NCBI GenBank assembly: GCA_008632985.1
Contig: QPGO01000050.1
Span: 372,001 to 436,000, forward strand
DNA from: Psammoneis japonica
Lineage: Eukaryota
Direction: 5' to 3'
Length of the DNA: 64,000 nucleotides
Shown here: piece after piece, positions 6,166 to 51,826 of the stretch
How positions within the stretch are numbered: the first letter of the stretch is position 1
Layout of the letters: each line of letters starts with the position of its first letter
Notes under the pieces: model-generated
Told to the model about the DNA's origin: nothing
Databases searched by the model: none
Seen by the model: only the letters and a program-made list of their open reading frames with translations
Program-made: the position numbers and the translations under genes

Positions 6166-9100
6166 AAATATTGTCTGTGCAGTACGTCTAGATTACGAGA
6201 ACGGAAATTTGGATGGTTACTGGAATGCCTTCAATCAGAATTGAGAACTGTGGGTTTTTCTCAGTCCATATTTGTGCTGCGAGTAACAAAGTTAGCACAA
6301 CGCTATTCATTAAAACATTTATCCGTTCCCAGGGTCTACCACTGTTTGCACCCAGACACAATACCATCAGTGTCCTGTTCAAACGAGTCAATGTTTGTCT
6401 TCTCTCTGGACTGTCTTGCTAGTACCTAGAGTAGAAAACTGGCAACGGTATTATGCTAAAGTCAATCGAAAACAACTCATACGGTAGAGGCGACGGCGTG
6501 ATCGGGAACCGGTGCTGAAAAAGCATTCCCAAGTTCGTGTGAGCAAAACGATTTTGCGACTAGACGACTCTAACGTAATAAAAAATTTATCTAAAATGCA
6601 TTTTACAAGACTCTAATCACATTGAATCTTCAATGAATGAAACGGACAGTACATGCCAACTGATTCAGTCCAAGCTTTGAGAGGAATCTTAGAAGTCGCA
6701 TTCCCGATCATCATCAAAGACACCACTGAAAAATTTGAAGTGGCCCAAGCCAAGCTCCTCTGAAGGGTGGTCATCAGTTGTCTGCTTCTCTCATGCATCA
6801 CCCAGTTTCATGTTGTAAAATGGGACATGGTCATTGTCAAAACAGACCCCCAAAAATCTTTGCCATGAACATGTTTTTGAATGGCAACAATGCACACACT
6901 GTCCCTTCTGAATTTGGACTTTGGTTCCTTCCAAGGCTTCTTGGCATGGTCATTGTGATGGCAAGACAGATCATCCTTGGTTGCTGACAAATGTGATCCT
7001 GTTGTGTGCAAGTGAACGCAAAAGGCCAGGCTGCTCCCAACGTGAAATGCAACAAGAGAAATCTCACAAGTCTGCTGACATCAAAATTCTCCAAAGCCAG
7101 GAAAATGTTGAACAAGACAACACACTTGTCCTGTTGACATGCTTGGACTGAGAGACAATGCACATCCAGTCCACAGACTTGGTGGCAGCCTTGGACACAA
7201 GAACAGCAAGCTCCATGCACTTCAGCAAGAATGACTTTTGAACCCAAAGAAGTGATGGGCTTTGCTCCAGACAGAAGACTTGCTCACAGATGACCAAACT
7301 GAACTCAAAGTGACACTCAGAAAGCTCTGCCACTTGATGGGCAAACAGATGTTTGCAAGCTTTGTGCACCCCTGGCAAGCCCAACAAAGAAGTGCAGAGA
7401 ATGTTGCAGTGGCAGCCATCCACGTTGAGGAGATCTCTTGCTTGCAGCAAGATGTGCCAATGGATGAGCCAAAGAGCGGCACAAAGCCAACCACTCTCAC
7501 TCTTGCAATGAATCACAACTCAAACCAAGATGCAGCAGCCAAATTCACAAAGATGAGAAAAGACAGCATGGCAGCATCAGCAGTGGGCTGTGTGTTGCTT
7601 GCATTGTCAAAAGCAAAATTGTGGCAGCTTGAGTTGACGACATTTGAAGCACACTCGGACAGTCTCATCAGCACAAAAAACAAGTTTCACCATGCCAACA
7701 TTGGGGTGGACAAGGAGCATGCATCAGCCAAAACAAAATGGAAAACAGGCCAGAAGCCTTGTCATTTCTTGTTTCTGCCAACTTTGCCTGGCTGGTGAGA
7801 CAGACTGCATCGCACACAACATTGCACATTGTTGGCTTTCCAAAAGTGACATCTCCTGCATGTGGACTCAGATCTTGCTCCACAGTCTTGCTGTTTTCTT
7901 CTTTTGCTTCTTTTTGGTTGATTTAGAAACAATTTTTGTTCATGTCCTGATGTGCACACAAACTGGCTGATCATCAGAGCCATTTTGCAAGGAGAGCCAC
8001 ACTTGTGTGATTTTTGCAGCATTTTCTTTTCCTCCCTCCAGCTTGATTTGCAGGAAGCTTTTGAGCACCCCGGCTGCAGTTCAAGACTGGGTTTGTTGTT
8101 GTTGGATGATGGTGAGAAGCATCCCAAACAAACAATTTCCCTTGTCTTTTGTCCTTTGCTGCTCAGAAAAATTTCATTTCTTCAAGACAGGTGCCATTTT
8201 TGTTGACAATTTGACATGTGCAACCCATGCTTAAAAAGGTTTGCTCATGCCTGGCTGGCAGAACTTGTGCTGATTCAAGACACAGCATCTGTTGCCTGGT
8301 CGCAGGAATCTCCATCTGTTCTCCACATGGCTGGGGATCCTTGAGATGAGTCAAATGAAGAAGTCAGGCTCACACAAGGGGCCCCTCACAAAGCTCATGG
8401 CAAAACATGGACAAGCTGCACCTGTGTGGCAGGGAGTGCCAGAAACTCACCTTCTGCTTGGCAACCAAGCAGCTGAAAGAGGTCAGCAGCAGGTGTTGTG
8501 GCTTGATTGAAACAAGCCACCAGCTCAGTGCTTCTGAGGTTTGAAGTGATTGCTGGTGCAGGTTTGACATGCAGGGATTGACTTGCGACAACAGTTGTTG
8601 AGGCACCTTTTGCAACCAAGTTCAAGCCCACCAAGCTCTGCTCCAATTTCCTCAGTGTCAACAATGCCCAGGTCTGTTCAGCCATTGTGCTGCAAGCTCA
8701 TGATTGATGTGTGTTGTTGTTTGATTGACAAGTGAAATGTTGCTGTGATTTGTGAACATGCAGAAGATGTGTGGGGTGCAGCTGCGTTGAGTTCAACCAT
8801 GAAGGGTTTCAGCTCTGTCAGTTTGACTCTGCAGATTTGTTCCAAATCATGTGTTTTTGCTGTTGCAGCATGTGTGCATTTCTCTGAACCTTGGGAAAAG
8901 AAGACCCAGATTTCCTGAGTCTGCACATCTCTTTGCAACATTCACAAGCACGCATTGATTTGTTTTTTCTGCAATTCTGGCAATGTGAGCAAAGGATCCT
9001 GCTGAAGTGCATGACCAAGTGCATGTCAGAGGTGCATGAATCATCTGTGTTGTTGTTCGCACATGTGGATTTGCACACTTGGCACAGGCACAAAAGACAA

Positions 9101-12100
9101 AACAATGAGGTGGATCACACTGGTGGGGCCACTTCCTGTGATCATGATGTGCTGCACTGGAGAGAAATTTTGTGGGGCAAAGAATGGTTTGCTCTTAGAA
9201 AACACATGAAACAACATGACACATCAACATTTGTGCATGCGTGCATGGTGGTGCATTGGTGTCAAAAGTTTTGTGTCTCAATTGCAGGTGAGTCAGGCAT
9301 GGCATTGTTTGGATGGTGGCTTTCTTTGTCCACAGCCAGCCCAGGAGACCAAATGGCACTCTGACTGTCAACACATTCTGCTTGATTTGCAGCAGGACAC
9401 AAGAGGTGGGCTGCTTGATTTTTGGCATCCCAAGGGTTCAGCCATTCTTACAAAGATTGAAGACTTTTGGAAGAAAGAGCACCAAGACAATGGATGCAAT
9501 GTTGCGTGCACCCTGCATGTTGCAAATCTTTTCTCTGGAAAATGTTGGGACTTCTGCTTGAGAAGGAATGCTTGACCAAAAAGGTTGATTGAGGATGAGG
9601 ATCATCAGATCAAATCTGTGAACTGTCCCTTCCATGCTGTCTGATGTGCAAGAGTGAGCTTGGATGATGCTGTCAAGATTTTCCTTTTTGACAGGCAGAA
9701 CTCAGAACAGTCCACCGGCATGTTCAGCTCTCATGTTGTGCTTTTGCATTGAATGTTCTGCTTCTCTGGTCTTCTTGCCACTTGCCTCTCAAACTGTGGC
9801 TGTTCCGTGTGCAAGATGCAAGAGATCAGGTGCCTTGCATGGGCTGGTGCACATCCATGGTTTTGCACAAGACAATGCAAACATCTTTTGTCTGCCAGAG
9901 CAGCTGCAGGACAAGGTTGTTCAGGCGTTGGACTTGACCAAAATGATTCTTTCTTGCTTTGGCTTGCTTCTGACAAGTGTGACACCATGCTTTCAACACA
10001 ACTGGGCAAGTTCATTGGGTCTGATCAAATGTGGAAAACAGCGCAGCTGTGGCACTTGAGTTGAGGGAGCTCTTGAAGCAAAGAGCTGCTGTGAGCATGG
10101 CATCAATGAAGGAGGCGGGGCATTTTGCATTGCAAAGATTGACTTGATGATCCAAGATGCAACAGGGCACACTTGGCAGTGTGCTGCTGCTCAGGGTGAT
10201 TTCAATCTGCTGGGTCAATGTTGCGGTCTCAAGCATGCAAGCGCCAAAAGGATGAAGCAACAATCTGTCATGGCCCACCACCACAGCATCATTGGTTGGG
10301 GCTGAAGAAGCAGAAGAAATTGCCCTTTTTGGAAAAACAGAGAGGAAAAAGTGATGGCTGCATCAGATCAATTCACAACCAGAACGTTGTGCCATTGCAT
10401 GCCCACAATTGCCTCAGGCAATGGCTTGACAGTCAGCATCCTGGAAGTCACACAGTTTTGAGCAATGGCGTTGCTGGGTTTCCTTTTTCTCAAATGCAAA
10501 ACAACAGGTCAGGCATGCAGACATGGCAGAATTGTCAAGCATTCTCATTTCATTGCAACACAGCCTGTTTTTCACCAGAAAGTGTTTCTTCCAGGTTCTG
10601 CAGTCTGGCAGCAGAAGCGGGAATGGAGATCACAGTTTTGTTGAAATGCTCCTCCAGTGCCGCATGAAGGATCCAACTCAACATGAGCTCCATCCTTGGC
10701 AGCAAGACATGTGGACTTTTTGCTCCATTCCTCTCTGTCAACTTCAGGCAAACATGGTGGTGCCTTGCAACAACAACCTCACCTTTCCTTTTGAGCCTTG
10801 TCCAAGCAAGCAAATGGGCGATGCTCTCAAAGCTTTGTTCAATTCCTTTTTCCCACATGGAACTTTGCAACAAACCAACAGTGGATGTGCAGGAGTCTTG
10901 GCGGCAATTCAGCATTGTGCAATCTCTTTGCAACACCATTCAAAATTGCTCCAATGCTGCAGGTGCAGTTTGCATGCCAGCAACTGTGACCTTGGCATGT
11001 TGTGTTGAGCATGTGATGTCAGCACAAGTGATTGTGTGTTGTTGGTTGTGGCAGAATGTGGGTGCAAACTTGTTGGTTGGTGTGCATTGTGTCACAGTGA
11101 ATTTGCAAACATTTTGGATTTAAGCACACAGCTGTGAAGAGCCCACAAAGAATGGAGGGGAACAGCAGAAGGAGGCATGGCAGCAGCTGCAGTGACAGCA
11201 GAATAGAATGGAGCAAAGGGCATTTGGTTGAAGGGACAGGGAGTGCAGGAGCAGGAAGAGCTCGCCTCACAAAAATTTTCTCAGGTGCCACCCCTGAGCA
11301 GGAGGGTTCTCATGTCAGCTGCTTTGGGTTTGAAGTGCTTGGTTGATTGCATGCAATGGTTTGCATTGTCTGTGCAGGCAGGCAGTGCAGATGCATGGAT
11401 CTTCTGAGGTGTGTTCAGTCTCTTTGGATTTCAAAAAAAAAAACACAATGCCTGCACCACAACAACTCTGCACACCAAACCATTTCATTGTCTTTGCAAG
11501 CTGCTGTCAACACGGCCAATGACAGAGCAACAGTCGAGGAATGCACTCCTCACTGCCCCCTCATCTTTCACAAGACAACCATGCCACCAAAGAACAAGAA
11601 CCACCAGAAGCAGCACCAGCCCAAAAAAGAGCAAATCAAAAGTCAAGCAGTTCACCAGAAGCAAAGCAAAAGAGAAAATCAACAATTGCTGAGTGTGAGA
11701 AGGAAACAAAGAACTCCAGAAGGTGGTCCAGCAGCTCGAAACATGGTTTGATTGTCTTGCATGGTCACTTTTTGGGTCTGTGACATTGGCCTTTTTTTGC
11801 ATTGTTGTCACCACCAAGGCACTCCACCAAGGCACCTCTCACTTGTTCCCACTCAACGAGCTTTGGTCAAAAAGTTTGCAACACATTGTTGGACTTTTTG
11901 CTGGCTTGGCATGTTGTTCAAGGTCATGGCTGGCTTGTGATCATGGCACTTCATTTTTCAATTGTCACAACTCCAATTTTCTGCAAAGTGGCTGCACACC
12001 GTGGGAACAAAATGATGCAAGAGCACTCCGGGGGCACTTGAGACATTGGCATTTGTCAGGGAGACTCAAAACAGATTCCAAAACAGGTGTGACTGTGAGT

Positions 12101-13397
12101 GTGTTGTGGACAATTGAGCAATCCAACTCTCACCACTGTGCTCTCTAGAAAGCACCCAGCAATGGCCACTTTTGCATCCCACTGCCAGCAACTGACAGTT
12201 TCTTTGTTGACCTCTTGCAAGGAGTTGACATTTTTCTTTCAGGGTCTTCAATGCCCCCCCTTCCAGTTGACAAATTGATTGAAGAACAGCCAAGAAATCA
12301 ACCATCTCATCATTGTCATCCTCATCTCCAAGAAGCACCCAATCATGTGGGTCAAGATGCAAGACCAACAATGCTGATGCCATGGCAAAAGAAGCATGAA
12401 AATGCAAGCAATTGGCACATGCCACATCAATGGCAGTGGACTGAAACAGACAGGTTGCAGCTGGTCAATCTGGTGCACAGCAAGAAAAGGAGCTCAACAA
12501 AATCAGGAAACACATGTGGCGCTGCTCACCAACCACACCGTTCTTGTGGTGTGTGAAGACCGTGAACTGTGTGCATTGAATCACCCAATTTCTTGTCCTC
12601 AATCTGTTCCTTAAAGACAAGTCCTGCACAGTTCATGTGATGCAGATGCATCCACAGCATTTTCTTGCATGACATTCTTGAGTTGTCCATGTGTTGCCAT
12701 TGGGGGGGGGGGTGAACAATGAACAAAAATTTTAGCATGAACACTCTTCTTGCAAGAAACGCGGCTGTCACAACTCCACTTGCCAGATCTTGCCAACTCA
12801 CTGTTTTGCCAAAACTGATTCATTCCTCTCAAACCAGCTGCACACCACTGCTCTCACACAGAACTTGTGGCAATGGTTTGTGCCCCTGCTTTCCAAGGAA
12901 GGCAGAGAGAGAGTGCAGTTGCAACAGCCTGTCAGGTGAAAAGCATCAATGAACGGTGGCATTTTGGTGGTGAGATTTGAGTTCTGGCTTGACAGCACTC
13001 AGTCCAGAGTTGTTGCAGGGTCAGTGTGGGGGCCTCTGTGCAAACTAATTTCCAGGGTGTTTCACACACAAGCATTGCAACAATTGATGTTCACCAAATG
13101 CAGAAAACACATCTCATGTGCTGTGGATGACACGTGAGCATGCTCAACTCCTCATTTTTCAGATTTGCCCTCAGCATCATTCATGCGGCCAAATGTTTGT
13201 GCAGAGGAGGCCCCTGCTCAGGGGTGCTCAGGTGCGGCACATTGTGTGACAGATCTTCAGTGGATGATCTGCAGCAAGTGCATGAGCCACCTCATTGTTT
13301 TGTCATTTGTGCATTGCACGCGGGCAACAAGAACAGACAATTGCTCGCGCACCTCTGTCAAGCATGCAGCAGTGCACAAGCAATTGACAAACCCCAG

Positions 13398-15740
13398 GTG
13401 TGAAGAACGTGTGTTTTTGTGAAATTGTCAGTGTGTCAATGCTGGTTTGTTCAAGCCAGCAGTCACAGGGCCCCACTTGCTTTGCAAGGATGGCGAGGGA
13501 GCCTGCTGCCCACTGGAGAAAGTTTGCATTTCTCCAGAAGCAGACCAAGAAGTTTGCAGTGCTGACAGTGTTGGGAACCACCGCAAGAAAGTTGGCACTG
13601 CATCATTCCCCCAAGAAGCAAGTTGTGTGTGTGCATGTCAAAAAGCATCAGGAGCACTGCCAGAAATGTTGAGCCCCCCAGAAGTCCCAGTGAGAAAGTC
13701 TGCACCCCCCAGGAATGCAAAGGCAACAAGTTTGCGCGTGGTCAGAGGAAGAACAACCATGAGAAATCTGCACCGCCCAGGAACCCCCCCTCACCAAAAG
13801 TTTGCATTCCCCACCCCAGGCAGGAGGAATGCATGTGGAGGAACCACCATGAAAACAGGCCATGCAGTGGTGTCATGTCTGGAAACCTCACGGCAAGTGA
13901 GTGCTGCAAAAATCACATGTGAGAACCAAAATGACCCTCACCAAATTTTTGACGTGAAAAATGACATGGCCGTGGCAACAAAGCTGCTTGTGTTGCTTCC
14001 ACAGTTTGACATTCCACCAAACCAAGGCATGCATCAATGGGTCTTGTTGGTTGGATGTTGTGTCTGCACAGTGCACACTGTTGGTGACAATCTTGGTGCT
14101 CAAATTGAAGGCACACTGTTGATGGCAAAACTGATGCCCTGCAGAAAGCAGTGCAAATTCTGCACAAAAACAAAATCACCAATCAATGACCCTGTCACAA
14201 ATGGTGATTTGCAACACTGCACAACCCACCTCAGCAATCAACCAAATGTCACAAGGTGTGTCAGACAATGAAGGATGTGACCACATCAATGAAAGTGCCA
14301 CTCCAACAAAAGGCAACAACAGCGAGTGAGTCATTGTTGAGGATGCACATGTTTGTGACTCCGTTGGCCCAAGATTGAGGATTTCTTGCTGTGGGCCCAC
14401 ATCAAAGACACACGGGGGCACAAAAACAAGCGCGACCTTTGGTCATGCATGAAGGATCCTGTGGAAGTGTGTGACCAAGCATGTGGCGCATGAGTGTTTG
14501 GCGAGCCTTGGGTGTGAAGAGCACGTGTTTTTGCAGAATTGTCAGTGCATGCATGATGGCTTGCTTGCATCGGCAGTCACACTTGCCCTGCAGGGATGGC
14601 AAGGGAGCTCTGCCACCCACAGGAGAAAGTTTGCCCCCCCCCCCCAGAAGCAGACATGAGAAGTTTGCACAGGAACCACTGCAAGAAAGTTGGTTGCCAT
14701 GCCCCCCAAGACACAAGTTGTGCACCACACCACAGAGCATCAGGAGCCCCATGAGAAATGTCGAACCCCCTGGGAATCCCAGCAAGGAAGTTTGCATCCC
14801 CCAGGAATGCAAGGACAACAAGTCTGCACCCCCCAGGAACCCCCACAAAAAGTTTGCATTCCCCAAGACAGGAAAACAAGCACAGAGGAACAGCCACAAA
14901 AAAGTTTGCACCCCCCAGAAACCAACACCATGAAAAAATTTGTAGAGCCCCCAATGAATGCAAGTGTGAGAAGTCTGGAAGCCCCTTGGCAAGAAAGAGG
15001 AAGAGTCCTCCCCCGCAGCCTGGCCAGGAGTGTGTGTGCCACAAACATGACAATCAAAAGTGCAGAACGTTGAGTGCAACATTCAATGGATGTGATGCAA
15101 TGTCATTCTGAAGAGCACAACATTGCATGCTGAACTCAATGATGCACATGACATCAACGTGTGCACATGCAATGAAAATCACAAAAAATGAAGGTGACCC
15201 TTGCCAAATTTTTTGCACAAAAAATGATGAGGCCACAGCAGCAACAAATGCCACTTGTGTTGCCCACACAAGCCAAGGCATGAATTGATGAGAAACAATG
15301 ATGCCATTGCAATGAGTGCTGTTCACATTGCCCACAAAGTTTGGCATGTTGCAAAACCAAGGGATGGGTCAATGTGTCTTGTCAAGCAGATGTTGCAGTT
15401 GCACAATGCATGCAATTTGCAGTGACCTTGGTGCTCAAATCGAGGTGCACTCATCATGACAAAAATGATGCCCTGCAGAAACCCATGCATGTTCCACACA
15501 AAAACAAAATCACCAACCATCAGCTCTCTTGCACAAATGGCAACTGATGATGCCACACATGCCACACCAGCAATCAATCAACACATCACAAGGTGTGTCA
15601 GGCCATGATTGACAAGACAGCATTGAGCCAAGAAGTTGGTGTGCAACACAAAGGGCAGTGGCAGTCTGTGAGCGGGTCATTGTTAAAGATGAGCATTGTT
15701 GCAACTCCATTGGCTCAAGATTGAGAATTTCACACTCTTG
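13398..15740 (+). repeat. Degenerate tandem duplication (copy A ~13398-14400, copy B ~14511-15740) with internal Lys/Pro-rich 'aagtttgcaccccc' repeats
   Basis: Colinear shared blocks: tgtgaaga..gtgttttt..aattgtcagtg (13399/14513), cttggtgctcaaat (14092/15427), aaaacaaaatcaccaa (14167/15501), ttggc-caagattgag-atttc (14364/15710). Confidence 0.8.
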
Positions 15741-15899
15741 GGGCAAAAGCAAAACACACAGTCAGACAAAAAAGCGCCAGCTTTGGTTGTGCACATTGGA
15801 TTTGAATGTGCTGTGTGATTGTCTTCATCAACAAATGCAAGCATTTCTCCATTGCCGTGAGATGGAAGCATCTTGGAATGATTTTTGTGCATGCCTTTG

Positions 15900-16930
15900 A
15901 CATGTGCAATTTCCTGTGACATTTCATGTCACAGTGTTTTGTGGAAACTTCTTTAAAGTGCATGTCCAAATTAACATTTTGTGCTGATTTCATGACCCAG
16001 GATTCCACAACACCTTTTGGAATGTTTGCATCCATCATGAGCATCCAGCGCTGATTTCACGTTGTGCTGCACCTGTGGGAAGATGCCCGTGAGCAGCAAA
16101 AGTCTGTGAGGAAGCAGCAGCACCCCTGAGCCCTGAGCGGCAATGCAAACCTTTGTTTTTTGCGCAGACCACAACTTCTTGCACAAGGACACATCATGCC
16201 TCCAATCACATTCCTGGCAACATGCCGGCATGGTCATCAGCAGCTCAGAATGAAACAAGTGGCATCATCCTTGACAAAACATCTCACACTGGCACCCACA
16301 TCAGTGAATTTTTCAAGCTGATCATCTGGGTCTTTGTCATTTTCAACCTTGATTGAGAACTTTTTTGGTCAGCCCGTTGCAGTTTCTGGTGTGAACTCAT
16401 GCAACACAGCTCTCTCATTTCCCACACAGCTCACAATGGTTTGAACATGCTTGCCAGCAAATGCCAACAATGTCTGTTTCACCTGTTTGATTGACAGACT
16501 GTTTGAAAAGGCACAGCTGCAAATGGAGATGCTGGTGCAACCAGCATCAATCATCAAATCAAAAACAGCTCCTTCATCAAAGTCACTTGCACCAAAGATG
16601 GCATCTCCATGTTGATTCTTCCAAGCTCCAAAGTTGGACAGATGCTGATCTCCTGTGGCCCAAGTCCATGTGGCACGCGTGTCAAAAGGTGATCTGTCTT
16701 GCAACATTGTGCCAATGTCCCCATGTCATCCCAGACAAAGAGACCAAAGCCACTGCCCCAGTGCCCACCCACAAAATCCAACCACCAGATGGAGGCAGTT
16801 CTTGTGCAACAAAACACACTGCAATCTTGGGATTGTGCTGCACATTTTTCCAGCTTGCCCTCTTCTGCTGCTTGGGAGCTCCTTTCTGTGAAATGATTTA
16901 TGACCAATTTGCAATGTTGGGCCAGGTGGT
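15900..16930 (-). pseudogene. Hypermutated DUF2252-family pseudogene
   Basis: TGDQHLSNFGAW...IFG.SDFDEG motif and upstream VFCC.RTASIWWLDF, matching the DUF2252 FYRGTA..F..D and GD.HL.NFG/NDFDE motifs; stops and frameshifts present. Confidence 0.75.
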
Positions 16931-18046
16931 GTGGTTCCCACCACTTGCAGCTTTTGAAGCTTTTTTGCTCCAAAACAAAACAACACTTGGCTCATGGAAT
17001 GTGACAGAGTTGCCTTTGTTTTTAGCAAAGGAGGGCAATGCTTCTCCAACCATGACATTCGAGTTGGCTTTGAATTGTGAAAAGGCTGAAATGGCAAGAA
17101 TTGTCCATGATGCAACTGAGATTTTCTGTGTTTGCTTCCTGGCACTGGCAGACAAAATGTGCAGATGCAACAGGTTCCTCCTGTGGAGGTGCGCAGTGCC
17201 TCTGGGCCTCTTTCCCCTCCTGGCAGTTGACACAAACAAGAAACAACCACCATCATTTTGGAACTTTGCACACTGCCTTTTTCTTGATGGATGCTCTCAT
17301 TGTTTTTGTTGAGCCAAGATGCACCCTTGGGATCAACATCTTTCATGAACTCTCTCAAATTTTGCATGATTTCTTTGTAGAACAAAGGATGTCCCTGAAA
17401 AGAAGAAGAAAAAGATCGACATCCCCAGATCTTTTTCATGCACCGGTGCTCCAGTTTGATGCTGGATGAGCTTTTTGGAAGAAAAGTTTTGTTCCTTCTT
17501 GATCAGTGGGGGTGAGGGTGTGCTGGGCTTTGCACCTGTGCCAGTTGCTGTGATTGGGGAAGCATCCTGCACAAAAGGCCAGAGATCAGCTGTTGTCATC
17601 ACCATTTTTTAAGAGCCAAGCCACTGCAAAAGTTTTTGTTGCAAAGAGAAGGGATTGGAAGCACTTTGTGGCATGACTGGCATTCCATCCACACTGCAGC
17701 CATGTCTGGGTGCAATGATGCCCATGATGAAGCTTCCCTTCTTGGGTTCTGCAACAAGCCGACTGGTCTCACATGACAAGGAGCATGATGAGTCGTCCAT
17801 TGAACAGGCTCTGCCTTCATTGCCAAGGGCAACAACGCTGTTTTCTGATGAGACAGATTCCATCATCTGTGGAATCACAGCTTTGTTTGAAGAAGATCTT
17901 TGATGCCTTCACATGAAAACTTGATCAGCAGCTCAGCACTCCTGCCAATTTGAAATTTTCATCAACTGCCGGTGGGACTTGATCTTTGTTGCAAACTCTC
18001 AAAGTTCATTCAGCATTTTGAGAAAAGGAACAACACAACAAACAAG

Positions 18047-18185
18047 ATGAAGGTGGCTCCAACGTTTGAAATCAAGGTTGCCCTCTTGGGAAATGTTTCT
18101 GCTGGCAAGACCACCTTCCTGAATGCCCTCTTGAGGGACAAGTGCGGGGAGGCATCCATGAAGCGCATTGCTGCCGCAACTGCCC
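18047..18185 (+). pseudogene. Truncated N-terminal fragment of a dynamin-like P-loop GTPase
   Basis: FEIKVALLGNVSAGKTTFLNALL G1 motif, then the similarity stops at the domain edge. Confidence 0.65.
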
Positions 18186-26222: not shown

Positions 26223-26243
26223 TAAGTTTTCATAACAAAGCTA

Positions 26244-29663: not shown

Positions 29664-29846
29664 TGAGCAAACTTCTGCATCACAATTGCATCAGCAGCTG
29701 CAAGATTTGGGAGATTCGAATGACCATGATTGTTGACACCTCAAAGAAATTCTGCAACAGAAACCCAAACACTGTGGCTGTGGTCAATCGCAGCTTTTCC
29801 CACAATTTTTAGAAAGCATTTGTGGACAACTTGTCAAGACTGTTCA
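29664..29846 (+). repeat. 5' LTR (183 bp)
   Basis: Aligns end to end with 35791-35976. Confidence 0.9.
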
Positions 29847-32050: not shown

Positions 32051-32399
32051 CTCAGAAGAACCAAATGCTCACCTGGCTTGATGAGCTCCTCTGACTGACA
32101 CTCAGTCACAAGAGCAGGGTGCAGATGTGCACCACTTTGACATGGCATGCTGTGGTCTGCCAGGAGGTCCTGACGAGACGTCAGGAGGAACGGACATCAG
32201 ACGAGGTCCACATCCAAGAGGACCTGGATTGTGATCCAGTTTGGAGTGCCGCTCCAGTCCTGGTGTCAGCTTTGAAGTTGACAACACCATTGCTGTTGAT
32301 GTGGGGGTGCACCGGTTGAACATGATGAATCTTTGCATGATGCACATTTGTTGCATGAAAACAACAACACGGAAAATGAGAAAAATCAAGATGAGCCGA

Positions 32400-35300: not shown

Positions 35301-35798
35301 GCAGTTGGAGAACATCCTTCTTGCAATGTGATGGAAGTTCAACAGATTGTTGACAGTGCCTTGGCTGCAACCATGCATGGTCTGCGGTGCGCCCCTTCAA
35401 GAGTCTTGGGAATTTCACCAGGAGCTCTCATCTGCCAGAGAGACATGTTTCTTGATTTGCCACTTGTTGCAGATTCAATTGCCATCCGGGATCATCAACA
35501 AGCATTGATTGATGACAACTTGCATCGGCAAAATCTCAAAAGATGCTTTTTTGACTGTCGTGTTGGGCAGCAAATTTTGATCAAGACAGATGATCCTGCC
35601 AAGTTGGAAGAAAGATCTTTTGGTCCATTTCCCATCACACAGATTCGTGTGAATGGGAATGTTGTTGCTGAGCAGAGAGCACCTTGTGTGTTTGAAAGGA
35701 TCAACATTTGGCGCATTTTGCCGCATCGACTTTGGCATGATTGGGTGGATTGCGATTCAAAGCATTTGCGTGAATCGTGGAAGGAAAGAGTGAAGTGA
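32400..35798 (+). pseudogene. pol: Decayed pol (protease, RT, RNase H, integrase)
   Basis: ALFDSGS (PR); WASPLFIIPKK, FTKLDLS, CFIDDV (RT); CTDATD..LGA, DHKNLT (RH); H..LGH, VD.IG.W, DKGGEF, NPQANAIFERMHQT (IN); in-frame TGA stops. Confidence 0.93.
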
Positions 35799-35976
35799 AC
35801 TTCCACATCATAATTGTGTCAGCAGCTGCAAGACTCAGGAGAGATTCAAATGACTGGGATTGTTGACACCTCGAAGAAACTCTGTGACAGAAACCCAAAC
35901 ACTCTGGCTGTGGTCAATCGCAGCTTTTCCCACAATTTTTAGAAAGTGTTCATGGACAACTTGTCAAGACCATTCA
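35791..35976 (+). repeat. 3' LTR (186 bp)
   Basis: Immediately follows the PPT; TG...CA; followed by gacaa. Confidence 0.9.
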
Positions 35977-37605
35977 GACAATGCGGCAGCAATGATTCAA
36001 AAGGCACAAATGTCACTTGTGCAAGTCAAAGCCTTGGGTGCCGCCAGCTCTGCTGCCGGCATGCCATCTGCAGCCGTGTTGTCTGTTGCCAAGGCTGCCA
36101 TGAATGGTGCTCTTGGATTGCCCACGCCATTGAATCTGGCTGCCGTTGTCCCTGCTGCTGCTGCTCTGACGCTGTTGCCAGTGTGCCAATTGCAACACCT
36201 GTGACCTGTCGGCAGCTGTCTCAAGCATGCCTTTTGCCACTCCTGCAAGTGCAGCCGCACTGGAACTGGCAGCAAGGATGCCAAAATGGCTCCAGGTGCT
36301 TCGTCAATGCATTTGCTTGTTCGCAACATGTTCAAGAAATACGAAGAAACCGAAGCTGGTTGGGAAGAAGAGATTTGCTTGGACTTTGAAGAAGAGTGCA
36401 GAATTGTGGCAAAATGGGTCATGTCAAACGAGCCGGGTGGTGAGATTTTACAAATTTCACTGCATTGATGGAGCCATTGCTGGTCGATGGTTTGACAAGC
36501 GGCAGTTGCAGGCAGAGTGTGTTTTGGAGCAAGACTTGCCCAAGAACAGCAAGGTCGAAAAGGAAGAAGATGCCCATGCACCAGTGGGCCAGATTGTGCA
36601 GAGGACGTGAAGGAGGAGAATTGCGATGCCTCACCCATGGGTGAGGTCATCAAGACAGAGGACAGTGATTCTGTGGACAAAGCTGTCAAGACGGTGAGCG
36701 ATGCTTCATCTGGAGCTGTCGTAAAGGAGGGAGATGACGAATCTCCAGCGACTGCAGTAAGGAAGGTCGACGACTACGTCAAAAAGGAGGAGCGAAAAGC
36801 TGCGTGGACATGTCGTTTTCTTTTTGTTTCATCACGGCAGGGAGGAAACAATGGAAATGGTGACATTAGCAAGGGGAGAACGCGTGGCTCGACAAGTTGT
36901 TGATTGAAGAAGACATCAAGGAGAGTCGCGCAAGAAGGACTTGCTTTGTCAACCAACGTTGTGGATTTGCATGAAAGAGTCAAGTGTTTCACACCCATGT
37001 GCATTTTTTGTTTTAGATTTGTGCAGAGCGATGTTTGGACGGTGTGTTCAAAGCGTCAACGGGTTTATTCCTTTTAACGCTTCCCCGGCTACGGCACATG
37101 ACGTTGTAAAGGCGTTTGCAAAAGTAGATGAATGACACTGCCAGTCTGTTGTTCCGCGTTTGAGAATACGGCGTCGCTGACATCAGTAGCGTTGAGTGGA
37201 TCACTGGTCGTCAATGCCATCACACTATGGAATGGGCATGGAAATCGTTTCAAATCGACGACAATGTTGTCTTCGAGGTGAAGCCTCTCCAGCCAGCTGC
37301 ATTTGGCATTGTCCATGCCCCCAGCATTAGGCTGTGATTGAACAAGCCTACCGATCCGACAAAAGTCGCCAAAGCGCTGGTTCGTAAGTGCGGGTTGAAC
37401 CAGTTGACAAACTTATGTCGGATGAAGGAATGCCTGTGAGTGGTGGAAAGAAGGAACGCAAAACAGGCACAGTTGGGGACAAGGCGGAGGATGGGCGTTA
37501 CAGGACATTAATTATAAATTAATTAATAAATTATTAGCTTGTTCTAATTCAGATTGCAAATTACCTAAAGCATGAGTTTCGCTTATCATGACCAGGATCA
37601 TACGC

Positions 37606-40127: not shown

Positions 40128-40490
40128 CTCAACGCAGGATGGGCCGTTGAATTCGTCTCTCAACGCATGAACGGGCCGTTGAATCTGCTTTTTTTCGTGA
40201 CTTCCCCAAGGGAAGTCACGAAAAAAACACTCTGCGCGAAAATCGCGCTCCCTTCTCCAACCTCTGCGCGACCGTCTCGCGCGCTTTTCAACGCATGTGG
40301 GCCGTTGAATTCGTCTCTCAACGCATGAACGGGCCGTTGAATCTGCTAATTTTCGTGACTTCCGGCCGGGAAGTCACGAAAAAAAACACTCTCTGCGCGA
40401 AAATCGCGCTCCCTTCTCCAACCTCTGCGCGACCGTCTCGCGCGCTTTTCAACGCATGTGGGCCGTTGAATTCGTCTGTCAACGCATGAA
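40128..40490. repeat. ~160-bp tandem repeat (2.2 copies), each full copy with a long inverted repeat
   Basis: Units start gggccgttgaattcgtct at 40141, 40299, 40460; hairpin tttcgtgacttcc-N5-ggaagtcacgaaa in both full copies. Confidence 0.92.
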
Positions 40491-45731: not shown

Positions 45732-45879
45732 GGTGGCGTCTGATTTATGTGCTGTGATGCGATAATGCTCTTATTATCGCTTTTGCGCGCGGCCGCATCG
45801 CATCATACCGGTGCCAAGGCATGCGTGCAAGAGAGCTTGGAGCAGACAGGCGAAACTTGACTGAAGATGTTATAGAAAG

Positions 45880-48800
45880 CAAAAAAAGAGTGCGAAGCTG
45901 TGCACACTGGCCTGGAGCAGTGTGGCTGCAGCACTCCTCCTTTGGAGCAAAGCTCCTGCTCTAACACATCAGAGTTTGTCTCACTGCTGGTGCCTCCTCT
46001 CTTTCTTCTCTCTCTTGTGTTTTGCCCGCCAGCCACATGCCGCCCCTCCTCTCAAGAGCACTGCAATGGATCTCTGGTGCAGGGGCTGCATTGAGAAAAC
46101 CTTTGGAGGAAGGTCTCCCATGCAGGCAACAATTCCAAGTGCCAGTGGTGCAGCTGCAAACAACAAAAAGAAAAGAAGAGCAGAGACTGTCTTCTCCAGA
46201 ATTGCAGAGCTGAAAAAAGGGGTTGTGCGCATTCATTGCTCCCCCCGCGGTCTGTGTGGAGGTGCTGCACAGCACACACAGTGTGGAGCTGTGGAGGTTG
46301 TGCCCCTGAAAGACATTTGCAAAAGATTGGCAGGCGGCATGTGTTGAGTCTGTTTTGCCAATTCCGCGATGTTGCAAGAAAAGTCAGTTTTGACCCAGGT
46401 GCTCTCCTCCTGGGGATGGGCATTTTCCAATCCCAAAGCCACAAAAGCTGATTTGTGGCATCACAGGGAAACTTGTCTCATCAGCCATCTCAGAGAAACA
46501 AGCAACAACAACTCATGACACACACCACCACATTGACAGCCTGCACTCATCGTCACTTTCAAGAGCAGAAGAAGCAGTGCTGAGCTGGCACAAGCAAGTG
46601 CGGTGCTGCAAAACTGCAAACTCAAGCAAGCATCATGGGTGCACATTTCTCAAAAGCAGAGCAGCATGACAACAGCACCCTCTTTGTCATCAAAGTTCAT
46701 GATGATGCCACCCTCATTGACCCCAATGCTCAACTCTCATGTTGACTCCACTTGCTCCTGTCGTGGTTGCAGCATCTTTTGGTGGACCCAAAAATGCCAG
46801 CCTGTTCTCGACAATTTGCCCTTGTTGCTCAAAGACCATGGCAATGGCTCCACACTTGCTGTGGCCCTGCCTCAGTTGCTCCCACAATGTTTTTTGCATG
46901 CCGGCACTTGCGATGAGCTGGAAGACATGCAACTGGCCAAACTGGGCTTGACCCAAATTCACGCATGTGGCAAATTGGTGGCTTCATTCAATGTGAAGAA
47001 GAGGCTGCATCTGTGGCAAGCGCTTGCACCAGCAATCAAGAGAGTGCTGCTGCAAGAGCTGGCTGTCAGCAGCAGTGGCAATGGAGGAGGCTGCTGCAGC
47101 CCCTCCCCCCCTGCCAACAACAGAAAAAACTGGCTGCATGCTGTCCTCCTGGTGCTTTGTCAGATTGTGGCAACTCTTCTCACATTGACCCCTTGGGTGT
47201 GTGCTTCAAATGGCATGGCACAGCTGTGTGACATGCTGCAGTCAACTGCAATGGTCACAAGGACAGCATGGCAGCAGCATTGTGTCAGTGCTGCTGGTGC
47301 AGCATCAATGGGTCACAAAATTGTCAAGTGGGCACAGACTTCAACTTGTGGCCAACCTGGTTGAGAATGAGAAATGACACATTGATTTGGGGAGTGCAAC
47401 CCTGAAGAGTTGGCTGCTTTTTGGTGGCCAAACTTTGGGGCTAGCTGGCATGGTCATTGGAGTTGACACATGATGTCTGCCATGATTTTCAAGGCATGAA
47501 GTGAAGTCATGGTGTGCAAAGAAAAAGATGGCCAATGTTGAATGTTTTTTAAGAGACTGAGCACCTTCTCTCACAGCCAATGGCGCACAGTTGGTTGCAT
47601 GTTGAGAGCAGCTGTGTCAATGATCTCATGCTTGACAAGCCCCAGGTGTTTTGAGAAATGCACCACATCATTTTCAAACCCTGTGGCCACATTTTTGCAT
47701 CAGATGTGGCATTTTGTCAAAAAAAAATGCAGCCAAAATTGTCTCAAGATTGGTGAGGCACTGGCTCCTTGCCGAGTTGCCAGGGCATCACAAATGGTGT
47801 CCCTCTTGAAAAGTGCTTGGTGGTTGCAGGATTTTTGGCAGTGAAGGTGAGGCTCAAGGAGCAGATCAGAGAGGTTGTCAAGCAGTGGTTGCCAGGGAGC
47901 TGGGGGCAAAGAATTTGTGGCAGGGGTGAAAACATCACAGCAACATGGCAGAGCAACCAAGTGGGTGCAAGACTGCATGATGCAGAGAGGAGTGCTCATG
48001 TTGAGTCTGCACTTTTTCTGGAAGGCACGGTGGTCAGAGCAAAGTGCCTGATTGCTTGTGCATCCACAGCTGTGCACGAGGGGATGGGACATTGCAGTGC
48101 AGGGTGCACGCCTGAAAAATGACTTTGAGTGGATGTCCAGCAGACTTTGCCTGAGCAAACTTGTGTGAACAACAGCACTGCACAACAACATGTGCTTCAA
48201 GAACTCAGCCTCACTCTTGCACGCAATGGCTGCCACATCATCCATCATGTGCTTTGCAGGCAGTGCACTCATTCAACCTTTGCACAGAGACAGAAGCAGA
48301 ACATTCATGCTGCAATCATCACAAGCACTCTTCAAAGTCCAGCTTGGTGTTGCTGGTGTGCATTGTTTCTCTCCACCAGCCTTTTGTTCAAATCTTTTTT
48401 GGCCTTTTCTTTGCCTTTTTGTTGTTCCACCAAAACACGCTGTTTGAAAGCCCTGGGTTTTGATGAGTGCAACATCAACTCCTTCATGATGAATTGCCTG
48501 AATCACAGAATGCACAGGAAACAATTGAACAATCCTTGCAAGATTTTGGTGCAAAAGTGGCCACATTGTGGGTTTGCTTTCCTTGGAAACATGAGCAAGC
48601 CTTGCCAGCCTGCATTGAGGCAACCTGTGCTCTCCAGCAGCACTGATGTGACTTGCTGTCCCAGGGCAGATTGTGCCAGAAAATTGAAGCAGATCAAGAA
48701 AAGCACCCAGAAATTGGTGAGGAGGAGCGCTGCTTTGCAGATGATGTGGGCCACTCTTGCTGAAGAAGTGCAAGTGTGCAAAGAGACAAACATGAGGTGT

Positions 48801-51800
48801 TCTTCTTGTGGCATCACCCATGAGCAACAGAGAAGCCCCCAACCTCTGAGGTGGACTGCACCACAGTTTGAGGCAGCCAGGCACACCACCGCCAGCAAAA
48901 GGAGTGGTGCTTGCAGCTTCAAGGCACCCACATCATGCAGCAACAAACAGCAGCGCACACTCAAAACAAGCGGTGCTTGATTTGAGCACAAAAACTTCAA
49001 ATTGCAGCATTGTCTGCACTGGCATGATGAGCACAGCAGCAGTTGTGTCACATTTGGCAGCAACTTGCCCCTGTCATTGGAAATGCCAGCTTTTGTCTTG
49101 ATGGAAGGATGCAACCAAGCTGAGGACAAATGGGCAACAAGACAATGAGATGTGTGAATGTGGGTGAATGGCAACAAGACTGTCAGCTGAGAAGTGGGCT
49201 CTGTCTCAACAAGTGCACTCTCATCAATGCCGTGCACCACCACTGTGTTGAGAGCATGCCATGCTGCAGTCTTGAGAAAGATCCGTGCAAGACGAACCAC
49301 AGGGAACATGCTGGAAGTCACAATCACACCTCCTGTCTCTCTGCCAGTCATGCTTGCTGGAGCAAAAGAGGTGCTTGTTCAACAAATGTTCAGCCAGCTG
49401 GTCAGGCAGGCTTTTGCCAGAGGGACAGAAAGATGCTCCCCTGTTTCAGGCTGTTTCAAATGTGCTGTTCAGCTGCAAAAGCAAGGCAATGCTCTGACAT
49501 TTTGACAAAAGTTTTGTGGCCCAACAGTCTGGCACTTTTTTGCAATGAACTTGATGTCACAAAAAATGTCAAACCCCTGTGTTTGTTCAAACCAAATCTC
49601 ACCTTGTGCAAAAGACCACACATCTCTCACATTGCTTTCTTTTCAACCACATCCACAGTGCCCAGCCAAACAATGAGGTCCGCTCTTTCTCCCCCCACAC
49701 CACCCACTCATGTGAGTGGCATGGGGCATGCTCACATGTGTGCGGGGGCAACAAGAAAGGGCAGAAGGCTGATGAATCAAGACAGGGTCTCTTGTGGCAC
49801 ATGAAGCTTCTGACAAGTGGACATCCTTCAAAACATTTCCAGTGACAGCCACAGATTCCTCTTGATGAGTGCATCTCAGAGATGAGGGACATGTCCAAGA
49901 GGTGGCAGCTTCTGCAGCAGTGGTGTGGATGGCAGTGCAGGATGACCCTTCTAATTTTTGCAAGTTTGGTCCTGAGAAACACAACAAGGTGCACAAAGAA
50001 GTGTTGGCTGGCAAATGAAACAATGGGTGGGGGGTGGAAAAAGTGGGCACTTTTTTGTCTGCGCATGCGCTGCAAAGCATGGTGCACCACAGCTTAAAAA
50101 AAAACCCTGACTTTGCAAATGGCTGCAGCAGAGCTGTGGAAAAAATGCAATGAGCTGCCATGTGGCAGAGCTGAGAAGCTCCTGCTCATTTGTGTCACAT
50201 GGCACATGAGCCAGACTGGGGTGCAAAGTCAAGCCACATGCCACAGAAGAGTTCTGCATCTTGTCGGGCCTCCTTGGCAATGATGCCTCCATTCCGAATT
50301 CACATGATGGCACAGCTGAAGTGCTGGCAAGAAAGGAACCAGAAGGAGAGGTGCAAATGTTTTGGGAGCTCAAAGTGCACAAGTGCACCTCTTTCTGTCT
50401 GTGTGGTGTCACATGCATCCCACAGAATCTGAGCAGCCAAGCCTTGCACTTTCTGCATGCATCATCACCTGCTGACATGTGGCATGCACAAGAGTGTTTT
50501 TGGGCATGCAGGGTTGCCACCAGAAGGGGCTTGCTGCCAACCCAGCAATGTGGGCAATGTTGCCAGTCAGCAGGAGCACCTTCTCCAGATCCTCTCACAA
50601 CTCAGCAGTGTTTGCAGCTTTGTGTCAGCTCTTTTGGTGTGGCCCAGGCTGCAGCTGCAGCTGGCATTGTGACTCATTCCCTTTCAGTCATTTCCACAGA
50701 GCCAAGAAGCTCTGTGTTTTAAACCATGCCAACAAAAAGAGAAGAGAACAACACTTTATTTTTGCCTCATGTGCTTGCAGGCTTCTGAATGTAGTTTGCA
50801 CAGTTTTCAGCAATTGAGCTTGACAACTTTTCTGACAAATCAAGGCGTGCCATTCCCAAGAGCAGCTGACTTTGCTTGTTGAGTTCTTCCAAGAGCATGT
50901 CGCAAAACAAAGCATTCCACCCCCCATGCCACTGATCCACCCCACTGGTGTGCCATCTGTTGCACTGTTGATCACCAGTCAACTGAGCTGCTCTCATGGT
51001 GGTGGCACCAGGGGAACCCTTCATGACTTGCTCCACCCCCAAGCTTGTCAAATTTTGAGATCCAAAAGGCTTTCCAGATTCAAGGCAGCAAAGTTGCCAT
51101 CACAATCACTGCCATCAATGAGCACTTTTGTCCAGACATGGCATCTGCTTGCTGAGAAGATTGGAGGAGAGAGTTTTCTCTTGGGTGTGCAAAATGTGCA
51201 AACCCAAATGAACCCCCTCTCTCTTCTTTTCCGGCTGCTGGGGATCACACACCATCCCTGGCCTGCTGCCAGCTGCAACTCCCTCCAACTGGCATGAATG
51301 CTCTCACACAAGTCTGGGGTGCAAACACAAACATCTGGAGTCCTTCTTGGGTTTCAGCATTGTGCTGACATTGCTGTGCCATGGGAGCAGAAGTGTGGGA
51401 TGCTGTGTGCATCACAGATTTGATGGATGAAGTGGTGTGCTGGCAAGGCAGCAGAGAGTCCAGGGGGGTGTCAAGAACACAGCACTGCTGGTTGTGACAA
51501 CTTTTGCAGCAGCTGCACTTTTAAAATGCAAGCAAATGACACACAAATGGGGCAGAGCATGTGTGTCAAACAAAAATTTTTTTTTAAACAAAAAAAGAAA
51601 GGTTGAGATTTGCACCAAGCCACACTCTGCTGGGTTTGACACAGCAGCTGCAGTCTGTGTTTTCAACTTTTTGCTCACAGAGGCACATCTTGCCGTTGAG
51701 CTCTTGTTGCTGTGCCATCTTCCTTTCTCATTTGGGGTCAATCAGCTCATGGGCTGTCCTGTCTCCAACTTCTCTGGCCTGGAGCAACCCTGTGAAACAA

Positions 51801-51826
51801 CACACCCGATGACATGCCCGTTCAAG
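45880..51826. other. Hypermutated domain 3 (TpA/CpG-depleted) of unidentified relics
   Basis: Same signature; TA returns abruptly at ~51827 (gtaactgtaattttaaaaattatac). Confidence 0.92.

Follow-up and report, generated by a model that had tools for sequence, protein, structure and literature searches.

In a window of 64,000 nucleotides from the diatom Psammoneis japonica (contig QPGO01000050.1, positions 372,001 to 436,000), three blocks have lost nearly all of their TA and most of their CG dinucleotides and are rich in TG and CA. This TA-poor state arose by mutation; it is neither a native composition nor a family trait. We consider it likely that the blocks are silenced, non-functional DNA in the diatom nuclear genome that has been rewritten almost completely by two context-specific transition processes. 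The process is real, and its TpA part has a published counterpart in the chlorarachniophyte Bigelowiella natans, for which the accessible part of a preprint (Mettrop et al. 2026, bioRxiv 10.64898/2026.01.13.699255) describes de novo hypermutation of TpA alone to TpG/CpA in integrated viral DNA. The initial annotation had called the process undescribed, which no longer holds for the TpA part.

Composition and borders of the blocks

The three blocks are as follows, with TA and CG given relative to the flank-based expectation.

6695..18185, no strand: hypermutated block 1, 11.5 kb; TA 4.5%, CG 15%
27750..36700, no strand: hypermutated block 2, 9 kb of nested repeats; TA 8.5%, CG 35%
45875..51826, no strand: hypermutated block 3, 6 kb; TA 4.2%, CG 13%

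In 1-kb windows across positions 7001-18000, the observed/expected ratio is 0.00-0.04 for TA, 0.09-0.25 for CG, 1.65-2.34 for TG and 1.62-2.06 for CA. The TA and CG ratios are 0.00-0.12 and 0.26-0.44 across 28001-36000, and 0.00-0.06 and 0.05-0.24 across 46001-51000. Windows that lie entirely in the flanks have ratios of 0.44-0.80 for TA and 0.79-1.34 for CG. Counted against flank frequencies, which presupposes a flank-like starting composition, the three blocks together retain 62 TA against an expectation of about 1072, and 319 CG against about 1513; TG and CA are nearly doubled. Block by block, 21 TA remain of about 467 expected and 97 CG of about 660 in block 1 (6650-18185), 31 of 363 and 179 of 513 in block 2 (27730-36700), and 10 of 241 and 43 of 340 in block 3 (45880-51826), with a Poisson P of at most 1e-88 for the TA count of each block. 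The initial annotation had claimed blocks poor in TA and CG and rich in TG and CA and had suggested these observed/expected ratios as a check; the 1-kb windows of this stretch and the counts both confirm the signal.

The G+C content is level throughout, at 0.43-0.53 in 1-kb windows and 0.479 in the blocks versus 0.477 in the flanks. The four pyrimidine-purine dinucleotides together make up 0.24048 of all dinucleotides in the blocks and 0.24048 in the flanks, which is what pure transitions from TA and CG to TG and CA predict.

Change-point analysis puts the TA and CG borders of block 1 at 6695 and 6710 on the left and at 18185 and 18145 on the right, and those of block 3 at 45875 and 45895 and at 51825 and 51805. 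In block 2, CG changes at 27750 and 36690, and TA, less crisply, at 26565 and 37010. The two signals therefore change within 15-40 bp of each other at four of the six borders, and the coordinates first given for the blocks were correct to about 100 bp. The borders are abrupt on a scale of tens of bp, the adjoining flanks have ordinary TA, and the flanking genes are diatom-like, which bears out the initial annotation's guess of a diatom.

One might instead blame long-read basecalling: 5-methylcytosine at CG, together with a modified form of A or T at TA, might have been misread and never corrected by polishing, and there is no record of which platforms produced the assembly and the runs. We regard this as scarcely credible. 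Contigs built reference-free from a public run (X1) carry the same TA-free sequence; one of 7371 nt, with a k-mer depth of 58.3, runs from block 1 into its normal flank (17001-23532) and differs from the window in eight letters, four in 1185 bp of block and four in 5347 bp of flank. Block 2 contigs have a depth of 52-54 versus 55-58 for the flanks. The comparison with reads that the initial annotation had proposed thus gives TA-free, flank-joined contigs of equal depth, with the reservations that the independence of X1 is unproven, since it shares its sample with other listed runs and may be the window's own assembly data, and that its read accuracy, its platform being off the record, is judged from the size and depth of its contigs. 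Moreover, miscalls on opposite strands should yield TA from CG and CG from TA, and both are depleted. The flanking genes keep intact open reading frames of 577-622 aa, and the B. natans preprint documents the same signature with Illumina data.

Contents of the blocks and direction of change

Recognizable features within the blocks are listed here.

9658..10302, + strand: relic of a threonyl-tRNA synthetase (ThrRS) catalytic core (Pfam tRNA-synt_2b, E 3.3e-08; PDB ThrRS, E 1.7e-13)
13369..15793, + strand: old tandem duplication in block 1, with copies at about 13369-14449 and 14483-15793
16249..16683, - strand: relic of a DUF2252-family gene (Pfam PF10009, E 1.5e-10, in a read-through frame)
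29608..35976, + strand: gypsy-type LTR retrotransposon insertion, 6369 bp; a related locus lacks it (joint 29607>35977)
32750..34171, + strand: reverse transcriptase and RNase H relic (RT_RNaseH_2, E 2.2e-18; RVT_1, E 0.003, below the Pfam cut-off)
34413..35795, + strand: integrase relic (rve, E 6.1e-04, below the Pfam cut-off), alignable with the C-terminal portion of intact relatives

The initial annotation had taken the blocks to be methylated transposons, which is too simple. Block 1 carries the ThrRS and DUF2252 relics, and its final 1.2 kb is single-copy (k-mer depth 58-62, nothing else reaching 80% likeness). The ThrRS relic, whose nearest representative (P0241) is nearer to bacterial-type ThrRS, has one in-frame TGA and, when aligned to the PDB ThrRS, Tyr replaced by Cys or His and Arg by His at conserved positions. 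Pfam searches found no reverse-transcriptase domain in blocks 1 and 3 and no capsid or other viral hallmark in the blocks; none of the 50 open reading frames of block 3 has a credible Pfam match, and no gene is recognizable there.

Block 2 is built of repeats with k-mer depths of 116-3949 versus about 58. The retrotransposon within it has direct terminal repeats at 29670-29846 and 35798-35976, is skipped at the related locus by one DNA contig and one RNA-like contig, and belongs to a family with depths of 650-2300, that is, roughly 12-40 copies. The mutated zone overshoots the element by about 1.9 kb and 0.7 kb. The likeness of block 2 to the transposon-free relative continues to at least 37000, past the end of the mutated zone near 36700.

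The element also gives the direction of change. A search with its reverse transcriptase/RNase H relic found 590 relatives, the best of them 57% identical. At the 23 columns where intact relatives conserve Tyr, the element now has Cys 14 times, His seven times, Phe once, Ser once and Tyr never. Ten of 20 conserved Arg columns now hold Gln, His, Cys or a stop, and conserved Lys (18/18) and His (7/7) are all retained. The initial annotation had named equally TA-poor intact relatives as one finding that would count against it; however, all 78 environmental relatives of the element have ordinary TA (observed/expected 0.46-1.08), in a scan with one Tyr-containing peptide pattern, which is biased against hypermutated copies elsewhere.

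Repeat copies tell the same story. Read as purines and pyrimidines, the element's two terminal repeats have an identity of 0.99 versus 0.88 as bases, and the tandem copies in block 1 one of 0.90-0.97 versus 0.66-0.76. Where two adjacent bases both differ between repeat copies, the difference is a swap of TG for CA in 8 of 14 and 31 of 73 cases, with every other class at three or fewer. Such swaps also occur between the window's element and its other copies in the genome (33194-5 and 33777-8 are two cases among the 40 of 1522 differences listed), and over the whole stretch compared with reference-free contigs there are 1283 transitions versus 237 transversions. The polarised excess of TA to TG/CA that the initial annotation had called for is thus found at the Tyr columns and between repeat copies. 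The analysis as a whole shows which way the changes go, in which context they occur, that they keep to the blocks and that they are independent of each other; it also shows that they took place in situ, after duplication and insertion.

The context is narrower than TA as such. Of the surviving TA, 22 of 55 lie within TTAA in the blocks versus 57 of 1509 in the flanks (P 5e-16), and neither ATAT nor GTAC occurs among these 55. Former Tyr codons with a 5' pyrimidine became Cys nine times and His once, and those with a 5' purine became Cys five times and His six times (P 0.063); the preference for TA followed by a pyrimidine (TAY) is based on these 21 polarised sites and the contexts of the survivors. 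There are no strand-coordinated runs (runs-test z -0.61, 0.23 and -0.45 in the three blocks). CG persists best in G+C-rich contexts.

Proposed mechanism and its alternatives

We propose that one process would convert the A:T pair at TpA to G:C, yielding TpG or CpA depending on the strand hit, with each site resolved independently, about half each way, and without strand-coordinated tracts. TAY (RTA on the other strand) would go first, TAG more slowly, and TTAA would largely be spared. A second process would change C to T at CpG, again yielding TpG/CpA, more slowly than the first and slowest in G+C-rich contexts, a pattern expected of 5-methylcytosine deamination in CG-methylated silent DNA. 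The outcome would be permanent inactivation, with all Tyr codons and TAA/TAG stops lost, CGA turned into TGA, and repeat copies diverging from each other. Because both processes end at the same borders, one mark of the segment probably directs both. We infer that the marked segments are methylated or heterochromatic, in other words silenced, and the process presumably serves as a defence. The core of the initial annotation therefore stands: besides CpG decay, a second targeted process changes TpA to TpG/CpA on either strand of discrete DNA that is apparently silenced.

As for the chemistry, our tentative suggestion is that a TadA/ADAT-like enzyme works on DNA and deaminates adenine to inosine; we do not put it higher because oxidation of the paired thymine leaves an identical footprint. 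Thymine modification favors TpA in some protists, and formyluracil is mutagenic. A TET/JBP-type oxidase could make 5-hydroxymethyl- or 5-formyl-uracil at RTA in marked DNA, which would mispair with G and give T to C; TA is self-complementary, so the A of TAY and the T of RTA belong to the same base pair. We think this unlikely, as no sequence feature favors it over adenine deamination. A single deaminase, recruited to marked DNA and able to attack adenine at TpA as well as (methyl)cytosine at CpG, would account for the shared borders and for the fact that both depletions rank alike across the blocks, block 2 being least depleted in each; the B. natans preprint also cites ADAT2 enzymes that reportedly edit both A and C in DNA. 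It is nonetheless improbable. Some environmental relatives have CpG decay without TA loss (L042, CG 0.11 and TA 0.76; L054, CG 0.24 and TA 0.77), CG loss is far less complete (13-35% of expectation left versus 4-9% for TA), CG survives best where ordinary 5-methylcytosine decay would leave it, and the changes reported for B. natans in the accessible text are almost solely A:T to G:C.

Two further explanations borrow from known systems. Fungal RIP changes C:G to T:A, mostly CpA to TpA, and so creates TA and lowers G+C. The sharp borders and the repeats of block 2 would suit a strict RIP, in which duplicates detected by homology are mutated in the sexual cycle, and diatoms have a DNMT4 that groups with fungal RID, its function not being known (Hoguin et al. 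2023, PMC9998398, as far as its accessible text goes). However, as the initial annotation held, the direction is the opposite, TA being destroyed instead of made, and a cytosine methyltransferase cannot account for A:T to G:C. The final part of block 1 is single-copy at the 80% likeness level, the likeness of block 2 to its relative runs past the mutated zone, and the B. natans target is single-copy and mutates in mitotic growth, according to the preprint, all of which makes strict RIP very doubtful. Still more remote is ADAR-like A-to-I editing of double-stranded retrotransposon RNA followed by insertion of the edited copies. A retrotransposon is present in block 2, and ADARs favor a U 5' of the edited A, as the preprint notes. 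The terminal repeats, identical at insertion, differ by TG-versus-CA swaps, and therefore the changes postdate insertion; in addition, the mutated zone reaches beyond the element, blocks 1 and 3 have no reverse-transcriptase domain, strand-coordinated runs are absent, and CpG loss would be left unexplained. Two targeted processes acting on marked chromosomal DNA remain the reading that we prefer.

Relation to known systems and significance

To our knowledge, no cellular process that hypermutates chromosomal DNA at adenine or thymine in a TpA context was known before 2026, and a full-text literature search found no report of TpA hypermutation in a diatom. APOBEC3 and ADAR work in bursts, on single-stranded cDNA or on RNA, and leave strand-coordinated runs. 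What is seen here may resemble APOBEC3 (cDNA) and ADAR (double-stranded RNA, with a liking for a 5' U) in being context-specific deamination against mobile or foreign nucleic acid, but the changes are post-integration, strand-symmetric and made site by site, and they reach non-retroelement DNA. Fungal RIP, too, is an irreversible hypermutation by transitions in a dinucleotide context that keeps to segments with sharp borders, hits non-functional or repeated DNA, and has the net effect of inactivating copies and driving them apart. Unlike RIP, the process here removes TA and leaves G+C level, and a dependence on duplication and a premeiotic stage, as RIP has it, is not shown here and is not likely. 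CpG decay of methylated transposons is likewise a loss of CG to TG/CA that affects only silent repeats and proceeds more slowly where G+C is high, but it covers the CG half only and cannot remove TA. The accessible text of Hoguin et al. (PMC9998398) describes DNMT5-maintained CG methylation in diatoms.

The closest likeness is to B. natans, as far as the accessible part of the preprint goes. There, 124 genomic clusters are depleted in TpA and enriched in CpA and TpG, the targets are integrated giant-virus and virophage DNA, and an ADAT2-type adenine deaminase is proposed. The hypermutation was seen in Illumina-sequenced mutation-accumulation lines, at a de novo rate about 1000-fold above background and in some lines only. 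Both cases have TpA to TpG/CpA transitions on both strands in discrete genomic segments, TA-depleted clusters enriched in TG and CA (in B. natans, the affected genes show an excess of reverse-transcriptase and transposase domains), and a direction that opposes the usual bias from G+C to A+T. The host here is a stramenopile, whereas B. natans is a rhizarian. The TA observed/expected ratio is about 0.02, an almost complete loss, versus 0.45 in the B. natans giant-virus region, and the targets seen are an LTR retrotransposon nest and gene relics, with no viral hallmark found. The preprint's accessible text does not mention CpG and states the TpA context alone, whereas CpG decay has the same borders here, TAY is preferred and TTAA is spared. 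Rates were measured de novo in B. natans; the process here is known from its sequence footprint, and the one hint at a raised rate is that X1 and the window differ at four positions in 1185 bp of block versus four in 5347 bp of flank.

New here, then, are the near-complete conversion, the CpG decay that shares borders within 40 bp at four of six edges, the TAY preference together with the sparing of TTAA, the absence of strand runs, and the targets themselves. The only prior report being a preprint on one rhizarian alga with a still shallow footprint, the saturated diatom footprint means that the process is not peculiar to one species and can go to completion, destroying retrotransposons and dead genes. 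The TAY preference, the sparing of TTAA, the lack of strand runs and the borders common with CpG decay add constraints on mechanism.

One may speculate, and we do so with little confidence, that a TAY-specific DNA base-editing defence is old and widespread in SAR and coupled to CG methylation, with a mark or a dual adenine/methylcytosine deaminase driving both erasures. If this were true, TpA and CpG erasure would together amount to silencing by mutation alone, as a mirror image of fungal RIP, and a comparison of genomes that carry the footprint with genomes that lack it should identify the enzyme, which would be a natural editor of adenine in chromosomal DNA. Diatoms offer genetic tools and many sequenced genomes, which opens the search for the enzyme to species comparison and knockouts; a natural A:T to G:C editor of double-stranded chromosomal DNA would interest base-editing research. 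Finally, such blocks conceal genes and transposons from homology searches, and comparing them as purine/pyrimidine strings recovers them.

Footprint and borders of the blocks

The three blocks, which are separate dead stretches of a diatom genome, bear a real and striking footprint in which TpA-directed DNA hypermutation is combined with CpG decay. In 1-kb windows at 7001-18000, 28001-36000 and 46001-51000, observed/expected ratios are 0.00-0.12 for TA and 0.05-0.44 for CG, versus 0.44-0.80 (TA) and 0.79-1.34 (CG) in pure-flank windows; TG and CA in the blocks are mostly at 1.5-2.3, and the G+C content is level across the whole window. Only 62 TA sites survive in the three blocks together. The summed fraction of the four pyrimidine-purine dinucleotides is 0.24048 in the flanks and 0.24048 in the blocks. 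Therefore, TA and CG have been swapped for TG and CA via transitions, with no other bulk change. The TA/CG-poor, TG/CA-rich composition described in the initial annotation is thus borne out by the 1-kb windows, the counts against flank expectation and the dinucleotide sums, and its block coordinates agree with Poisson change points computed separately for TA and CG.

Dinucleotide counts and borders of the three blocks (expectation from flank frequency; change points as TA/CG)
Block 1, 6695-18185: TA 21 vs ~467 expected; CG 97 vs ~660 expected; borders 6695/6710 and 18185/18145
Block 2, 27750-36700: TA 31 vs ~363 expected; CG 179 vs ~513 expected; CG borders 27750 and 36690, TA change points less sharp
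Block 3, 45875-51826: TA 10 vs ~241 expected; CG 43 vs ~340 expected; borders 45875/45895 and 51825/51805

Contents of the blocks and their flanks

The recognisable features are as follows.

Block 1: relic of a threonyl-tRNA synthetase (ThrRS) core (Pfam E 3.3e-08; PDB E 1.7e-13)
Block 1: relic of a DUF2252 gene (Pfam E 1.5e-10)
Block 1: old tandem duplication
18622-21149, minus strand: NB-ARC/TPR STAND-type NTPase gene across two adjoining ORFs, beginning only ~440 bp beyond the right-hand end of block 1 and covered by contigs of sequencing run X2
27673-28339, left edge of block 2: very high-copy repeat (k-mer depth ~3949 vs ~58 for unique DNA) with short internal direct repeats at 28084-28124 and 28266-28306
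29608-35976, plus strand, block 2: gypsy-type LTR retrotransposon (RT_RNaseH_2 E 2.2e-18; RVT_1 and rve under Pfam cut-offs)
40129-40490, normal flank: short tandem repeats of ~160 bp, 94% identical

The flank genes are ordinary eukaryotic ones (the NB-ARC/TPR NTPase, a DEAH helicase, ankyrin, Mis12 and 6-phosphogluconate dehydrogenase), and the named relatives of the last are nearly all from diatoms, with identities up to 75%, so that the window can be placed in a diatom. In comparison with solved structures, the nearest representative of the ThrRS relic is bacterial-type, a likeness that would fit a foreign gene or an organelle-targeted host gene equally well. The retrotransposon carries short direct terminal repeats and has 590 database relatives, the best at 57% identity. 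Block 3 holds no recognisable gene, and none of its 50 ORFs has a credible Pfam match. In the host part of block 2, a protein search with ORF 36496-36900 was without matches, and an RBM39-linker hit (Pfam E 0.0098) was rejected as a chance-level match.

Direction, timing and alternative explanations

The read-through translation of the retrotransposon was aligned with intact relatives, 50 for reverse transcriptase plus RNase H and 39 for the integrase. At 23 columns of conserved Tyr the element now has Cys (14), His (7), Phe (1) or Ser (1) and never Tyr, and 10 of 20 conserved Arg columns have become Gln, His, Cys or stop; conserved Lys (18/18), His (7/7) and Gly (16/17) are unchanged. The Tyr and Arg replacements are precisely those that TAY>TGY/CAY and CGN>CAN/TGN produce, and the ThrRS relic displays the same pattern against solved structures. 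The initial annotation had left it to be checked whether intact relatives are equally TA-poor. They are not: TA observed/expected is 0.46-1.08 in 78 environmental relatives, and therefore low TA is no property of the family. None of these 78 metagenome loci is a hypermutated copy, a count biased against mutated copies in that one search pattern required Tyr.

On timing and INDEPENDENCE, the element's terminal repeats, which were identical at insertion, now have an identity of 0.88 as bases versus 0.99 as purine/pyrimidine, and the tandem copies of block 1 have 0.66-0.76 versus 0.90-0.97. The commonest adjacent double mismatch between copies is TG opposite CA (8/14 and 31/73, every other class numbering at most 3), as expected where each copy has independently resolved an ancestral TA or CG. 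TG-vs-CA swaps also distinguish the window's element from its other copies in the genome, and differences over the compared contig stretch comprise 1283 transitions versus 237 transversions. Therefore, the mutations arose in place, later than the insertion and the duplication.

Reference-free contigs of one public sample (runs X1, X2 and X3) were matched to 17001-37000 at a likeness of at least 80%. X1 contigs have a k-mer depth of 55-58 over unique DNA and 52-54 over block 2, and a 7371-nt contig spans the block 1 border (17001-23532) with eight letters differing from the window. Therefore, TA-free sequence is present in reference-free contigs at single-copy depth, continuous with normal DNA. 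The transposon part of block 2 has depths of 650-2300, and therefore the family numbers ~12-40 copies. Two contigs, one DNA (depth 56.8) and one X2 (depth 231.7), match the block 2 edges at ~86% and skip 29607>35977, so that a related transposon-free locus, apparently expressed, exists elsewhere. Short GT..AG introns are missing from the X2 contigs, which marks X2 as RNA-like; this run covers neither 17001-18334 nor the transposon, and its cover at the block 2 edges derives from the related locus. No X3 contig matched 17001-37000 at 80% likeness or more.

These results bear on several other explanations. An artefact, such as miscalling of modified bases, is unlikely: the TA-free X1 contigs run on into normal DNA, TA and CG are both depleted, and the flanking ORFs are intact. 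The length and depth of the X1 contigs imply accurate reads not prone to such miscalls; no platform is recorded for X1, which may itself be the data that the assembly was built from. Native composition is excluded by the Tyr and Arg column changes, the ordinary TA of the relatives and the swaps between copies. RNA editing prior to retrotransposition is excluded since the terminal repeats have diverged from each other, the mutated zone reaches the element's flanks and transposon-free blocks, and strand runs are missing. Repeat-induced mutation in the strict sense is unlikely: fungal RIP changes DNA in the opposite direction, no second copy of the final 1.2 kb of block 1 is present at 80% likeness or more, and block 2 stays similar to the related locus to at least 37000, past its own mutated zone.

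Sequence context and relation to known systems

TG and CA counts are nearly equal in the blocks (1283/1363, 933/925 and 675/698), and there are no strand-coordinated tracts: TG/CA order is random (runs-test z -0.61, 0.23 and -0.45), with clustering not above that of the flanks. Sites were changed singly, on either strand, without strand-coordinated bursts. TTAA makes up 22 of 55 remaining TA sites in the blocks versus 57 of 1509 in the flanks (P 5e-16); CTAA/TTAG rank second, and ATAT and GTAC have vanished altogether. Former Tyr codons (N-TA-Y) became TG nine times and CA once where N is a pyrimidine, and TG five and CA six times where it is a purine (P 0.063). We tentatively suggest that an A:T pair would mutate where A precedes a pyrimidine (TAY, read as RTA on the opposite strand), at a lower rate where G follows and scarcely where A follows. 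Such a rule may account for both the survivor contexts and the Tyr-codon products; the flank classes of the swaps between copies (R..R 7, Y..Y 9, R..Y 7, Y..R 1) agree with it only loosely. Native TadA recognises U-A-C in tRNA-Arg. Editing within YAC by a TadA variant is mentioned in a review. The TAY rule would read the same with A or its paired T as the target; thymine oxidation in place of adenine deamination is possible, at a fairly low probability.

CG retention is highest in GCGC (0.51) and CCGC (0.35) and lowest in ACGA/TCGT (0.09). In being best kept in G+C-rich contexts, the CG of the blocks resembles ordinary 5-methylcytosine decay. Common borders could point to a single dual-specificity enzyme for both TpA and CpG, which we consider quite doubtful: three environmental relatives (L042, L054 and L041) have lost CG without losing TA, and therefore the two processes are separable despite their common borders here. 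These three plus L057 and L071 have CG observed/expected of 0.11-0.40 and an ordinary TA of 0.48-0.81.

A full-text literature search found one description of a process of this kind, a preprint on Bigelowiella natans (Mettrop et al. 2026, bioRxiv 10.64898/2026.01.13.699255), and no diatom paper describing anything similar. According to the available portions of the preprint, mutation-accumulation lines acquired 302 single-nucleotide mutations in the nuclear genome, of which 231 fell in integrated giant-virus and virophage regions; with a single exception, these 231 were A>G or T>C changes, every one in a TpA context. The rate was ~6e-7 per site per generation, in some lines only; the genome has 124 TA-depleted, CA+TG-enriched clusters, and an ADAT2 homologue is the proposed enzyme. 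The opinion in the initial annotation that no prior description existed must therefore be given up. Its proposal of a second targeted mutation process at TpA gains support from this precedent, the Tyr and Arg columns and the copy swaps. The kind of process was first reported in 2026. The text of the preprint is silent on CpG, diatoms and context beyond TpA, whereas CpG decay and a tentative TAY preference are features here. With our results the phenomenon is seen in another, distant lineage and in a saturated state, and they add strand-independence, the TAY/TTAA context, and the CpG-context and separability constraints. Among diatom proteins, the portions available of Hoguin et al. (2023, PMC9998398) report that transposon methylation is maintained by DNMT5 and that DNMT4, of unknown function and related to the fungal RIP enzyme RID, occurs in many diatoms.

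Outside the blocks, 198-bp tandem repeats lie at 62317-62903, within the unannotated coding ORF 62109-63176 (minus strand). Of the 39 differences between them 32 are transitions, often CA/CG or TA/CA/TG exchanges; the identity of the repeats is 0.98 as purine/pyrimidine and 0.87 as bases, in a region without TA depletion. In the unique flank 20784-24886, all eight transition differences between X1 and the window lie in pyrimidine-purine steps (about half expected by chance, P ~0.003), four being TA/TG or TA/CA and four CA/CG. It may be that these two classes of mutation prevail at a low rate across the whole genome; the counts are small.
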